A stretch of DNA of 60,726 nt from a virus (taxonomy: Duplodnaviria; Caudoviricetes): IMG/VR virus record IMGVR_UViG_3300033076_001100, positions 1 to 60,726 of that record. One strand, given 5' to 3'. Positions 1,047 to 58,208 of this stretch are shown here, one piece after another; position 1 is the first letter of the stretch, and every line of letters starts with the position of its first letter. Below the pieces are notes generated by a model. That model saw only the letters and a program-made list of their open reading frames with translations. It was not told where the DNA came from and made no database searches. The position numbers were made by a program, and so were the translations under genes.

Positions 1047-1625
1047 CTATTCCCAAAACCCATCATCCGCTGTAATTGCTGGAGTGCTGACCGCCGGAGC
1101 CGGGGTTACGTCTCTGACCGGAGTTGAATTACCATCATAAACCATATCTACTGGAGGCCCAATGCTCATGCCACCGGCGAACAGTGACAAGGCTACAGGC
1201 GGAGCCTCGGTGTCCAGGAGTCCAGTCGCTTGTCGGGCGACGTGGACGGCGGCCTTAAGGTCAGACGCGCTCTGGATAACCACTTGATCTTCAGCAGCTT
1301 GTATAGCCTTGTACGCGACTTGGTAGCTGAGGGCGCGCAGCTTTTCCGCTTTCTGCTCCCAGGTCTCGGAATTCAATATATGCGAGCTAGATTCTTCACC
1401 CTTTTTCCCGGAAAAAGCGAGGTTTTGACCATTGGCGATGAAAGACGTAATACGCTTATTGAGTCTCGTTACTTTGGCCGGTGTCATCCAGTCTTCAGTC
1501 CGTATCCTACCCCAAATGGTAGCCTCGTTAACCTTGAATTGTTGACTCAGGTCAGGGATAGCGCATCCGAGTTCTGCCAGTCGCCGAATTTCCGGCCAGT
1601 CTGCTTTGATAGGTTGTCTTGCCAT
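1047..1625 (-). CDS. terS: Putative terminase small subunit
   Basis: N-terminal HTH (DWPEIRRLAELG..LSQQFKVNEATIWGRIRTEDW), helical middle, own promoter. Confidence 0.6.
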   Translation of the reverse strand: MARQPIKADWPEIRRLAELGCAIPDLSQQFKVNEATIWGRIRTEDWMTPAKVTRLNKRITSFIANGQNLAFSGKKGEESSSHILNSETWEQKAEKLRALSYQVAYKAIQAAEDQVVIQSASDLKAAVHVARQATGLLDTEAPPVALSLFAGGMSIGPPVDMVYDGNSTPVRDVTPAPAVSTPAITADDGFWE

Positions 1626-1637
1626 ATATAGTCCAGC

Positions 1638-1666
1638 AGGATAACGCGCTCTCCCATGGAGTTCAA
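1638..1666 (-). promoter_or_regulatory. Sigma70-like promoter for terS
   Basis: TTGAAC-N17-TATCCT on minus strand just upstream of ATG 1625. Confidence 0.5.
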
Positions 1667-1684
1667 GAGGGAGAATTTACGCGA

Positions 1685-1726
1685 CTACCGGCTCCACGGC
1701 TACCGGCTCCACGGCTCCACGGCTAC
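1685..1726. repeat. Short tandem repeat (CTACCGG/CTCCACGG units)
   Basis: ctaccggctccacgg ctaccggctccacgg ctccacgg ctac. Confidence 0.7.
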
Positions 1727-1737
1727 GCCTAGGCACG

Positions 1738-55196: not shown

Positions 55197-55201
55197 AAAG
55201 G

Positions 55202-55564
55202 CTAGGTTTTGTCTCGTTCACTCGGGGGCTTGGGATCACGGTAGCGGGGGTCGTCGATCTGCGCGAAGTCCTGGGTGTCAGGGAAGTTGTCCAGAGGGTG
55301 CTTGCCTTTGACCATGGCCAGGGCTTCCAATGTCGAGAGAACCTGCTGAACGCCAAACAGGCGGTAAAACTGGTGCGCGATGGCGGTATCGGGGTGGTTG
55401 CCGGGGATGGACGCAGGGATGCTGCGGGGCTTGATTGAGCTGCTGATGGCCTTGAGCGCCGCCGAGATGCCGGGAAGCTTCAGTTCCTCCTTGAGCGTTT
55501 CACGCAACACGGCGGAGTTCTGGAACTCGCTGATCTCGGGGCTTTGCAGGATGGGGTGGGTCAT
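55202..55564 (-). CDS. Hypothetical protein after portal
   Basis: 120 aa, ATGA overlap. Confidence 0.6.
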   Translation of the reverse strand: MTHPILQSPEISEFQNSAVLRETLKEELKLPGISAALKAISSSIKPRSIPASIPGNHPDTAIAHQFYRLFGVQQVLSTLEALAMVKGKHPLDNFPDTQDFAQIDDPRYRDPKPPSERDKT

Positions 55565-57891
55565 AGGGTCTGCGCGGTGCGAGCCTGACGCTCGGCTTCA
55601 ATGTGCTGGATCTTCTGACGGGCCATTGCGTCATTGATGAGGAGCTTCTGATCGGCTTTTTCCTTCTCAATTTGCAGCTTGGTCTTGCCTTCTTCCAGAA
55701 TGTTTGCCAGCCGGGCGCGGGCGTCCACAGCCTGACCGAACACGCCGGGAGGGGTTTCCTCCTGTTGAGCCTGCCCCTGATCTTCCTGTTGCATCTGAGC
55801 TTCCTTGGCCGCCTTGCGCTGATCGGCTTCAAGGTGCTTGGCCCCGTTGGTGATGACCTCGTTGAGCTGTTGAAGCGCCTGCTTGTACTGGCGGTACGGG
55901 ATGCTGGCGGGGTCGATGTATTGCATGTGCTCGTTGCAGTGCTCCGAGGCTTTCTGCATGACCGGGATAGCATCGGCCAGCTCGATTTGCACGTTGGCCA
56001 GCATGCCGTCGTAGGCTTGCAGCAGTTCGAGGTGGGTGCCGACGTGAACGATGTGGTTCTGGTTGCCCTCGACGACGGCGGCTCCGCCCAGCTTGATGAG
56101 TTGGTTCTCGTTGTTGGCGATCTGCTTGTCCACCGGGGGGCGCATGCCCGCCTGCCGTGGCACGAGAGCCAAGGCATAGCGGTAGTCGGTCTGCGAGGCA
56201 ATGGTGTCGCGGGTAAGGATCTGCTGCCCCTCGGGGTCCAGACGGCCAAAGATGGTCTGGTTGAGGTTGGCCAGCACCGTCCGACGCTCGGCGGACGATC
56301 CACGCCCGATGCCGGTGTTGAGGGTGATGTTGTCGTAGTCGAGCTGCTTGAGCAGGTCGTAGCCAACCCCGCGCTCCTCGCAGCGACGGCGGAACTCGAA
56401 CGCATCTTTGCCGCCGGGATGCTCCTCCTGAAGCTCGGGGTTGATGACCCGGCGGACGATCTCACGGTAGTCCCAGCTCCACGAGTCCATGTACATGTCC
56501 ATCACGTCGCTGGTCAGGCCGGAGTCCAGCTCGTCCTGACGCTGAAGCTCGTAACGGGTCTGGGTGCCCGGCTCCTGCCCCTGCTGGGTGGACCGGGGTG
56601 CCATACCTGCGGACTGAGCGCGGAAGTTGTCACGGAGGGCGGATATGGCCGGGACGAGGTTCCCTGCCACCGGGGGTGTGGCGCGTTCGGCGAAGGTGAC
56701 ACCCGTGGTGAGCTGGAAGTACGGGCCACGGGGGACGATCATGTTGTCGATGGTGGCGTCTTCGTTTTCCGTCTGGAGGAAGGTGTTGGCCTCGTCGTTG
56801 GCCTTGTCCACGAACTTGCACAGGAGCTTGTTGATGGCGCTGGCGGCGGGGAACAGGTTGGAGCCGTTGCCACGGATGCTGTGCAAGTCGCCATTGGTGC
56901 CGACGCCAAACAGGTACATGTTGATGAACTCCGCCATGCTGGCGAACTCGCTACGCTTCTCGTAGAGGAACCCGGCCTCCTCGGGACCGCCGCTGCCGCT
57001 GGTGTTGCCCACGTAGCCGATGCTGTTAAGCATGTAGTCGGCGATGTAGTGGCTGACGGTGCCGTCCACCTCCTGCACGAAGCCGTGGACCACCTGCACG
57101 ACGATGTTGGTGTTGCCGCTGTACACGGCGTTGTCCTTCCACATCGCCTGCATTTCCTCGGGGGACTGGGTGTTCAGCGGCTTGGGCTGGGCGTTGGTGC
57201 AGGACTTGGCGATCTGCTCGGGGTTCCACCCGGCGGCGCGTCCGATCTCAGGGTCGCGGATCTTGGCGTAGAGGTCGGAGGGAGTCATGTCCGCCTTGAT
57301 GAACACACGGTCCACAAGGTTGATCGACGCCTGGGTGCCTCGCGGGATCTTGACATCCTGAAGGCTGCTGACTTTCCAGCGCCAGTCGAGGTTGTCGTCA
57401 CGGTAGGTGAAGCTGACTCCCCACATGGTGAAGAAGTGGGCGTTGAGCTTCCAACGGAACCGGAAGTCGCGCCAGCGGGTGATCATCCGGTGCAGCTCCT
57501 CGGCCACGACGGCTTCCTTCTCGTTCTTCTCCGGCTCGGTCAAAACGCCGTGCTTGAACGGCACGATGCCGAAATGAGACAGGGAGTTGAGGATGGAGTT
57601 GATCGGCTTTTCCGCCTCGGCCTGAGCCATGCCAAGGTCTCCCCAGTTGACGTTGGTGATGCCGGTGATGCCCAAGGCGCGCAGCATGGTGTCGCTGTAG
57701 GGGGCGTTGCGGTCGGCCATGGACTGCACGACGGCGCGGTCGCGTGACGCCACGTAGTCCTCGTTGAACAGCGTCTGGTACTGGGTGACAACGTCAGAGG
57801 CCCGTTTGATGCGGGTGGCGGCTGTCACGCTCGGGACGGGAGGCGACTTTTCGACCGGAAGCTTGGCGAGTAGTTTAAGGGCGTCGGGCAT
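55561..57891 (-). CDS. Portal protein (P22-like size)
   Basis: 776 aa, first gene of head operon, Q-rich coiled-coil C-terminus. Confidence 0.7.
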   Translation of the reverse strand: MPDALKLLAKLPVEKSPPVPSVTAATRIKRASDVVTQYQTLFNEDYVASRDRAVVQSMADRNAPYSDTMLRALGITGITNVNWGDLGMAQAEAEKPINSILNSLSHFGIVPFKHGVLTEPEKNEKEAVVAEELHRMITRWRDFRFRWKLNAHFFTMWGVSFTYRDDNLDWRWKVSSLQDVKIPRGTQASINLVDRVFIKADMTPSDLYAKIRDPEIGRAAGWNPEQIAKSCTNAQPKPLNTQSPEEMQAMWKDNAVYSGNTNIVVQVVHGFVQEVDGTVSHYIADYMLNSIGYVGNTSGSGGPEEAGFLYEKRSEFASMAEFINMYLFGVGTNGDLHSIRGNGSNLFPAASAINKLLCKFVDKANDEANTFLQTENEDATIDNMIVPRGPYFQLTTGVTFAERATPPVAGNLVPAISALRDNFRAQSAGMAPRSTQQGQEPGTQTRYELQRQDELDSGLTSDVMDMYMDSWSWDYREIVRRVINPELQEEHPGGKDAFEFRRRCEERGVGYDLLKQLDYDNITLNTGIGRGSSAERRTVLANLNQTIFGRLDPEGQQILTRDTIASQTDYRYALALVPRQAGMRPPVDKQIANNENQLIKLGGAAVVEGNQNHIVHVGTHLELLQAYDGMLANVQIELADAIPVMQKASEHCNEHMQYIDPASIPYRQYKQALQQLNEVITNGAKHLEADQRKAAKEAQMQQEDQGQAQQEETPPGVFGQAVDARARLANILEEGKTKLQIEKEKADQKLLINDAMARQKIQHIEAERQARTAQTL

Positions 57892-57992
57892 AATGCCTTA
57901 TATACAAGCAGAGGCCGGGCAGCACCGCAACCTCCGTTTGAAAGGCACTCTTGCACGATGAATATATACAGTCAATGGTGAATCCTGAAATT

Positions 57993-58208
57993 TCACGACC
58001 AGAAGTCTGGCGGCGAGGACTTTTTCTTCAAGCACCCGCACGAGCGCACCCTGCCGGTGGATAGGTGAAGGTAGCGCACGACTGCCTCGTTGCCGCAGTC
58101 GCAGGTGCAGTACCACTGGGTGTTGCCCTGCTTGTCAGACGGGAACGCCGACACGACGGTCAACAGGCCGAACCGCTGTCCTACGAGTCTTTTTTTGGGA
58201 TTGGGCAT
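57993..58208 (-). CDS. Mini protein: N-terminal Zn/DNA-binding module of HNH endonucleases only
   Basis: LVGQRFGLLTV..WYCTCDCG..RSCGC then DFWS stop. Confidence 0.7.
   Translation of the reverse strand: MPNPKKRLVGQRFGLLTVVSAFPSDKQGNTQWYCTCDCGNEAVVRYLHLSTGRVRSCGCLKKKSSPPDFWS

Follow-up and report, generated by a model that had tools for sequence, protein, structure and literature searches.

The question raised by this locus is why proteins of unrelated fold, encoded on both strands of one phage genome, should end in the same few residues. The genome is IMG/VR record IMGVR_UViG_3300033076_001100 (Caudoviricetes), taken whole (60,726 bp, estimated completeness 93%) and called here the window. 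An earlier note, made from the sequence alone, had described six shared ends of the form acidic-Phe-Trp-x and had proposed a docking or targeting code, with a promoter element as an alternative explanation. This work indicates that these tails (hereafter FWx, each written up to its stop codon) are indeed maintained as protein sequence across a whole phage lineage, and that sister lineages bear other tails of related design, in a pattern which favours docking on a common partner.

Six tails in one genome

All six open reading frames (ORFs) end as the earlier note had described, with acidic residues before the Phe-Trp pair, on both strands, and with TTT as the Phe codon in four and TTC in two (Table 1). 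Among 74 hand-curated genes, FW occupies positions -3/-2 six times where 0.043 would be expected (binomial P = 6.8e-12), and 20000 within-protein shuffles never gave more than two, so that the comparison with a shuffled proteome proposed in that note does reveal an enrichment. The proteome holds 16 FW dipeptides in all, six of them at -3/-2, and the other ten are close to the compositional expectation of 10.2. A six-frame scan of the window for stop-to-stop frames of any length found nine with FW at these positions, the remaining three being non-genic frames of 7, 30 and 43 codons. In the 22 residues preceding FW, Asp plus Glu make up 22%; elsewhere in these proteins they make up 11%. In the structural model of the VRR-NUC nuclease, the tail is predicted to consist of the last five residues past the final helix, with a confidence below that of the fold.

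Conservation in related phages

No close relative was found by megablast against 50,697 deposited phage genomes or among GTDB species genomes (best SNF2 match 43%), and tblastn against 50,697 phage records gave SNF2 identities of at most about 40%. Five relatives found through the terminase (70-76% identity) were compared as whole genomes, their genes being called crudely as stop-to-stop ORFs. ORFs of at least 40 codons ending in FWx number six in G006 (complete), nine in G010, one of which is probably an alternative-frame ORF, seven in G009 and four in G008; G007, without the replication module, has no credible one, its sole FW-ended ORF (DKFWP) being excluded. Three ORFs with no acidic run before FW were judged to be due to chance and left out of the family count, namely HYTFWL (50 codons), SCSFWV (43) and DKFWP (99). 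When six-frame ORFs of 60 codons or more are counted, FW lies exactly at -3/-2 in 6, 6, 9, 7 and 4 cases in the five FW-lineage genomes and in none in G001, which belongs to the FC lineage described below; positions 4-25 combined hold only 8-18 FW dipeptides per genome.

At the level of single families, FWx ends the SNF2 helicase in 27 of its 29 closest homologues (34 of the best 120) and VRR-NUC in 55 of its 57 closest (55 of the best 120). Further carriers occur in the relatives, including N6/N4, C5 and Dam-like methyltransferases, a PAPS-reductase-domain protein and small helix-turn-helix (HTH)-like proteins, and a 110-residue family has the tail in G006, G009, G010 and L002, with none in the window. 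In the FWG lineage, the motif is often lengthened to F-[NDS]-E-x-x-F-W-G. All 24 distinct FW tails have their aromatics at -3/-2, followed by G, D, E, A, S or K as the last residue. Alignment of homologues, suggested in the earlier note as a check for a lineage-wide addition, indeed showed that close relatives retain the tail despite changes in codons and flanks; the sequence comparison confirms a lineage-wide tail and makes the observation broader than first reported.

Dialects of sister lineages

Sister lineages whose SNF2 protein is 53-58% identical have other tails, each again common within its genome. Five of the 117 ORFs of L004, a 15-kb fragment, end in [DE]FC, namely those of the primase-helicase, DUF2800, N6/N4 methyltransferase, VRR-NUC and SNF2 proteins. 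In the complete genome G001, six of 477 ORFs end in D[FI]C, one of them encoding a Zn-ribbon module immediately upstream of the large terminase (TerL), which corresponds by position and by PHROG-374 to the PPDFWS protein of the window. L005 has two WI ends (GEWI and GDWI), and L007 is mixed (KDFC, SEWI and ENWI). The DNA coding for the FC and WI tails (TTTTGCTAA, TGGATATGA) has no motif in common with the FW sites, while the acidic-aromatic pattern is retained. Judged from these sequences, FWx appears to be one dialect of a wider code that includes D-[FI]-C and [DE]-W-I. Among more distant VRR-NUC homologues, D-F and D-Y ends are frequent, and no common acidic-aromatic tail was seen in 153 loci with the same module and SNF2 identity of at most 43% (73 viral, L010-L082; 80 prophage-type, L109-L188). 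L189 and L006 represent a tail-less sister lineage and are too fragmentary for a search for genes confined to phages with such tails.

Tail and helicase core have separate histories. On a tree of SNF2 cores, built with the last 25 residues of each row cut and with three of the 120 homologues left out (P0029, P0040 and P0072, whose length fell outside 440-560 residues), FWx requires at least four changes on well-supported branches, and P0043 (FWS) and P0044 (DWI) are sisters with a support of 99. The tail therefore follows the resident phage and not the helicase core.

Selection on the protein and signals in the DNA

The window and seven related loci supplied 38 FWx ORFs, in which codon usage and context were determined. 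The Phe codon is TTT in 19 and TTC in 19, the last codon is of eight kinds (GGA, GGT, GGC, GAT, GAA, GCA, TCG and AAA), and the stop is TGA in 31, TAA in 5 and TAG in 2. On the 3' side, a start codon overlaps the stop at 20 sites, TTGAC spans it at 11, and neither is found at seven. Orthologous tails switch between TTT and TTC with F-W retained, and the frame is always F-W-x-stop. Because the Phe codons, the last residue, the stops and the downstream DNA vary while F-W and the frame stay constant, selection is shown, as far as sequence comparison goes, to act at the protein level. The argument of the earlier note from the two strands and the two Phe codons is borne out across the 38 ORFs, and the contrary outcome that it had named, conservation of nucleotides only, with frame changes, was not seen: the frame is constant and synonymous codons vary.

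Its promoter alternative holds for part of the signal. TTTTGGGRTTGAC is exact at three window sites (15559, 20690 and 27113), and TTGAC spans the stop at three of the six window tails. Of the three TTGAC sites, two (27121 and 20698) pass a sigma-70 consensus scan (TTGACA-like and TATAAT-like hexamers, 16-18 nt apart), whose hits over 14000-31000 number 5, compared with 5.3 in shuffles. The promoter idea seems partly right, in that the TTGAC box would constrain the last codon and the stop only, leaving Phe-Trp unexplained; likewise, the last codon often ends in A because of translational coupling (ATGA). On sequence grounds, neither the box nor the coupling appears to account for Phe-Trp. The string TTYTGGNNNTRR occurs 12 times in the window, against 3.2 +/- 1.8 in 100 shuffles.

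As a separate observation, the TAAAAT -10 hexamer of the promoter-like site beside the SNF2 stop ends 8 nt before the ATG at 27157, with a similar layout in L002, and the DUF3310 gene may have a nearly leaderless transcript.

Possible spread of the tail by recombination

One insertion shows how the tail might spread. In G010 and L003, a C5-methyltransferase gene separates SNF2 from the gene that comes immediately after it in G006. Near-identical 27-nt tail-coding direct repeats (...TTTAACGARGARGATTTTTGGGGATGA) flank this insert on either side, and its right-hand flank is that of the SNF2 stop in G006. Incoming genes may therefore acquire the tag through recombination in tag-coding DNA. A further copy of the cassette (FNEAQFWG) was found 29 nt upstream, in another frame.

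The carrier proteins

Three labels given in the earlier note proved correct: the DUF2800 exonuclease (Pfam 2.4e-55), the SNF2 helicase (profile matches) and the VRR-NUC nuclease, whose model has a predicted local distance difference test (pLDDT) value of 89 and a template modelling (TM) score of 0.90 to the VRR_NUC domain of 4qbo. The DUF2800 protein lacks the tail in G006, G009, G010 and L002, and ends in EDFC in L004 and SDIC in G001. The 119-residue carrier is homologous to the C-terminal domain of a 412-residue N6/N4 methyltransferase of G006, which ends in DDFWG.

The label "TerS-like" for the 192-residue carrier found no support, as this protein has no match in Pfam, PHROGs, NCBIfam or the PDB and an orthologue has only a weak HTH_7 match. 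Its gene does not adjoin that of TerL, which is downstream of it across the record ends, some 3.7 kb and at least six ORFs away. Its orthologues in G006, G009 and G010 end in DADFWG. In relatives, the gene following that of this protein starts at an ATG 2 nt past the stop (GTATGGGGATTCA); the same ATG reads ACG in the window (TTACGGGGATTCA), and the downstream gene must therefore start elsewhere.

The 72-residue carrier, called "mini-HNH" in the earlier note, matches only the Zn-ribbon-like part of phrog_374 and is akin to the N-terminal portion of the HNH endonucleases of phages. Its orthologues end in EEAFWG, and its positional counterpart in G001 ends in GDIC. The window holds three paralogous copies of this Zn-ribbon module, of which only that at 254-961 includes the HNH nuclease part.

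Two near-terminal instances had also been proposed. The DDDFWD of the 111-residue protein is conserved: its G006, G009 and G010 orthologues keep [DE]DFWG at the corresponding internal position, 17-19 residues before the C-terminus. That of the collagen protein (NDFWNQAF) was rejected as coincidental, its orthologues having no such tail there.

Two further C-terminal features were seen in the same module. The EndoVII/HNH-like protein ends in EGDPF and its orthologues in DGDPF or EGDPF (GEEPF in L006), a different conserved tail which resembles the bacterial SSB tip. A second co-varying motif is common to the DUF2800 C-terminus and the C-terminal region of SSB. In the FW lineage it reads DF(A/K)(G/D)V(D/N)L, and its form in L004 is VFSDE.

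Table 1. Positions of the tailed genes and of the other features discussed (window coordinates unless another sequence is named)
Positions	Strand	Feature	C-terminal end or remark
254-961	-	Zn-ribbon module copy (phrog_374)	with HNH nuclease part
1030-1046	-	DNA following the gene of the 192-residue protein	ACG for ATG of relatives
1047-1625	-	192-residue protein	DDGFWE, ending at 1047
1791-2126	-	111-residue protein	internal DDDFWD (about 1842-1859), 19 residues from C-terminus
7389-8060	+	Pentapeptide-repeat protein	
15211-15570	+	119-residue protein	SGDFWG, ending at 15570
15567-15572	+	TTGACC across stop, -35-like box	conserved downstream CGTTTCAG[CT]ATA; upstream of 66-residue HTH gene; no promoter call in consensus scan
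15608-15808		66-residue HTH gene	
18402-19148		248-residue protein	
19304-20701	+	DUF2800 PD-(D/E)XK exonuclease	ETEFWD, ending at 20701
20660-20701		Second motif, DUF2800	
20698-20726	+	Promoter-like TTGACG-17-GAAAAT	-35 box overlaps DUF2800 stop
21290-21379		Second motif, SSB	
21474-21719	+	DUF6321 protein, 81 residues	
24095-24448	+	VRR-NUC nuclease, 117 residues from ATG at 24095	SKDFWA, ending at 24448; stop overlaps ATG of next gene (ATGA)
24445-24915	+	EndoVII/HNH-like protein	EGDPF
25011-25715	+	Zn-ribbon module copy	
25712-27124	+	SNF2-family helicase	EDSFWD, ending at 27124
27121-27148	+	Promoter-like TTGACG-16-TAAAAT	-35 box overlaps SNF2 stop; next ATG 27157; TTGAC and TAAAAT conserved in L002
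27597-29549	+	650-residue protein	
32906-33991	+	361-residue protein	
57993-58211	-	72-residue Zn-ribbon module, just upstream of large terminase	PPDFWS, ending at 57993
L003 1683-2510		C5-methyltransferase gene	
G010 37937-38761		C5-methyltransferase gene	
L004 5080-5114, 6480-6524		Second motif	

A proposed docking motif and its candidate receptor

On balance, we lean towards the view that the tail is a short linear docking motif which brings its carriers to one common partner. The motif would be made up of an acidic, poorly structured linker, the Phe-Trp pair and a last residue, small or acidic, at the free C-terminus, and would tether its clients to a single receptor. These clients would be the SNF2, VRR-NUC and DUF2800 proteins, several DNA methyltransferases, the PAPS-reductase-like enzyme, the terminase-adjoining Zn-ribbon protein and small HTH-like proteins. 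One receptor acting in trans is argued for because many folds bear one tag, the linker is acidic, and the tags change jointly between lineages. We infer that a receptor is bound, that it is single, and that it is encoded by the phage and belongs to its replisome; by analogy with known systems, a replisome component such as the family-A DNA polymerase (PolA) would be the preferred candidate. Of the proposal of the earlier note, the protein-level and lineage-wide nature of the tail stands, and a common receptor would lead one to expect the different shared tails of the sister lineages.

A more far-reaching version, which we advance tentatively, is a private and evolvable address code. A tag of 3-4 acidic-aromatic residues would send as many as nine enzymes that act on DNA, in replication, recombination, modification and packaging, to a single hub encoded by the phage and placed on replicating DNA, in at least three within-genome dialects (FWx, D[FI]C and [DE]WI); hub and tags would co-evolve, a mosaic gene would work only in the resident dialect, and captured genes may gain the tag by recombination.

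Several candidates for such a hub were considered. A complex prediction with PolA, the SSB core (residues 1-170) and the 40 C-terminal residues of SNF2 scored 0.02 against a mark of 0.32, and weighs neither way. The match of PolA to solved PolI structures was confined to residues 384-516 (as a single sequence, it matched nothing), and the best 60 of 66 PDB matches to the polymerase profile included no T7 polymerase chain. In a search for clamp-like hubs, the 248-residue protein gave only low-confidence Atlas matches, the 361-residue protein was predicted to have the fold of a GT-A glycosyltransferase and not of a clamp, and the window proteins that were scanned included no clamp gene. The DUF6321 protein was set aside because it has no BLAST match in the tailed L002 and L004, a weak exclusion given that both are fragments; in L004, only 135 nt separate the SSB and PolA genes. 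No match in Pfam, PHROGs or NCBIfam was obtained for the 650-residue and 528-residue proteins, and no peptide-binding domain was found in ten early-region proteins scanned. A full-text literature search found no earlier description of such shared tails.

Comparison with known tails

The nearest analogues are found in T7. According to passages of PMC12339929, the acidic, Phe-ending tails of gp4 (represented in 6P7E by a DTDF peptide) and of gp2.5 both dock on the front basic patch of the family-A polymerase; passages of PMC5686142 describe acidic tails for partner binding in T7-type SSBs, including the Enc34 family. As with gp4 and gp2.5 of T7, different replisome proteins of one phage share an acidic, disordered tail whose key aromatic residue lies close to the free C-terminus. 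The polymerase is likewise of family A and the SSB of T7 type (DUF2815), the FC and WI dialects put the tail on the primase-helicase, and distant VRR-NUC homologues end in D-F or D-Y. However, FW lies at -3/-2 here, whereas the aromatic is the last residue in T7. There are 6-9 carriers instead of two, including methyltransferases, nucleases and packaging-region proteins, and the SSB of these phages has a tail of its own (DIFDDEL, DIDDM or EDDV). The acidic unstructured stretch of T7-type tails is present here (22% against 11% Asp plus Glu, with the VRR-NUC tail predicted past the last helix), but none of the 24 distinct FW tails has an aromatic as its very last residue.

The bacterial SSB tip DDDIPF is an acidic-hydrophobic C-terminal hub peptide, and resembles the FW tails as a hub code in DNA metabolism. 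There, however, one hub bears the tail and many clients have pockets, while here many clients bear it, and the consensus differs. Indeed, the FW tails are on proteins other than SSB and do not end in IPF; only the EndoVII-like protein, with its GDPF end, comes near. The beta-clamp-binding motif (CBM) is given in passages of PMC11139829 as Q-phi-x-[L/M]-[F/L] or Q-phi-x-[L/M]-x-[F/L], often with acidic flanks. Like the CBM or PIP box, the FW tail is a short aromatic motif, often C-terminal in those systems, on many DNA enzymes (polymerases, nucleases, methyltransferases and SNF2-type helicases in those systems) that would share one hub, but in all 24 distinct tails Q and L/M are missing from the positions that the motif prescribes. 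C-terminal address peptides on unrelated proteins are also known from encapsulin cargo loading and from the HbYX motif of the proteasome (hydrophobic-aromatic-any at the C-terminus). They too use a short C-terminal peptide for one assembly, and the HbYX pattern resembles F-W-x, without any sequence relation. By analogy, the FW tails may be regarded as a variant of the already known acidic-aromatic C-terminal docking tails.

Points against docking and other explanations

Several observations weigh against the docking interpretation. Carrier membership varies among close relatives, the DUF2800 protein being tailed in the window and not in G006, G009, G010 or L002. The motif is internal in the family of the 111-residue protein, and a free carboxylate after FWx is therefore not always needed. 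Part of the sharing of tails may have spread by recombination and not by independent selection. TTT is commoner in the tails (19/38, 50%) than in the genes of the window (161/562, 29%), the sites not being independent, and a minor pull at the DNA level is possible; with 11 of 38 sites overlapping TTGAC and 20 a start codon, DNA signals do shape the last codon and the stop. Receptor binding itself is reached by inference, and the gene calls, stop-to-stop ORFs with curation by hand, are crude.

Among other explanations, a C-terminal degron fares best, though we hold it to be improbable: early and middle DNA-metabolism proteins would be destroyed on schedule by a host or phage protease, and the dialects would track proteases or adaptors. 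A lineage-specific C-terminal tag common to many unrelated proteins would suit this idea, and ssrA illustrates how C-terminal tags serve as protease signals. Yet the linker is strongly acidic and, to our knowledge, unlike the known bacterial C-terminal degrons. The nearest sequence analogues (the tails of T7 gp4, gp2.5 and SSBs) are moreover docking peptides, according to passages of PMC12339929 and PMC5686142. The conservation of the motif at an internal place in one family also speaks against a degron.

A sorting signal, which would load the carriers into the capsid or into a phage-built compartment for delivery to the next cell together with the DNA, is less likely still. The FWx and D[FI]C dialects both also tag small proteins adjoining the terminase gene, and the methyltransferase and nuclease carriers could protect incoming DNA, somewhat as in encapsulin cargo loading and P1 Dar. 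However, a siphovirus-sized head for 60 kb would need room for up to nine carriers, some of them enzymes with 470 to about 850 residues (846 to 883 stop-to-stop codons), no capsid or scaffold partner was found, and most carriers are replication-module enzymes.

We give an equally small chance to a DNA mimic acting in cis, in which the tail would fold onto the DNA-binding cleft of its own protein and inhibit it, as in T7 gp2.5. All carriers bind DNA; a title cited in PMC5686142 has the T7-type SSB tail competing with single-stranded DNA for the same surface, and passages of that source have the Enc34 tail tuning the choice between single-stranded and double-stranded DNA. This mimicry gives no reason, however, for unrelated folds to have one tripeptide or for its joint change between lineages.

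Lastly, a signal mainly in DNA or RNA that the upstream gene merely reads through (promoter, translational coupling or recombination joint) could draw on the three exact copies of TTTTGGGRTTGAC, two of them promoter-like, on the 31 of 38 sites that overlap TTGAC or a start codon, on the excess of TTT and on the repeats around the C5-methyltransferase insert, but is very improbable given the invariable F-W-x-stop frame with varying synonymous and stop codons, the seven sites with neither context, the five of six window sites not tightly coupled to a downstream start, the other dialects that keep the acidic-aromatic pattern without the DNA motif of the FW sites, the shuffle-level count of promoter-like hits, and the other six TTYTGGNNNTRR matches, close to the 3.2 expected by chance.

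Genomic setting and neighbouring genes

A replication, recombination and modification module occupies the plus strand between about 14 and 34.7 kb, and the terminase and structural genes are on the minus strand. The module encodes a primase-helicase (PriCT-2 and DUF5906), the DUF2800 exonuclease, an Enc34-type SSB (DUF2815), the DUF6321 protein, a family-A DNA polymerase, VRR-NUC, the EndoVII/HNH-like protein, the SNF2 helicase, DUF3310 and several conserved unknowns. The DUF6321 protein, which is basic and encoded between the SSB and polymerase genes, keeps 76-81% identity between lineages in which the polymerases have only about 44%, an unusually strong conservation. Some polymerase homologues (L002 4919-7957; P0144, P0156, P0161 and others) have about 1000 residues instead of about 690, with a query coverage of 67-91%, which suggests a large insertion, perhaps an intein.

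The 361-residue protein is conserved in 615 representative relatives and its model (pLDDT 92) has the fold of a GT-A glycosyltransferase; its block also holds the 650-residue and 528-residue unknowns and a SAM methyltransferase, and may be a DNA-modification module. The 650-residue protein and its orthologues have Trp-rich ends, such as GSGWGESWS and NSGWGDSWG in the sister lineages. In the early region, the pentapeptide-repeat protein (Pfam 3.9e-41) may be a DNA mimic.

Significance for phage biology

If the tails are docking peptides, they would constitute a viral counterpart of the hub logic of the clamp and its PIP boxes or of the SSB tail, with the tag carried by many clients, and the phage would in this way link its DNA modification, repair and packaging enzymes to the replication machinery. 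Mosaic gene exchange would then be constrained, as an incoming gene must match the resident dialect. The tails would also offer a handle, readable from sequence only, by which phage proteins of unknown function can be assigned to DNA metabolism, and the dialects would supply orthogonal peptide-receptor pairs for engineering.

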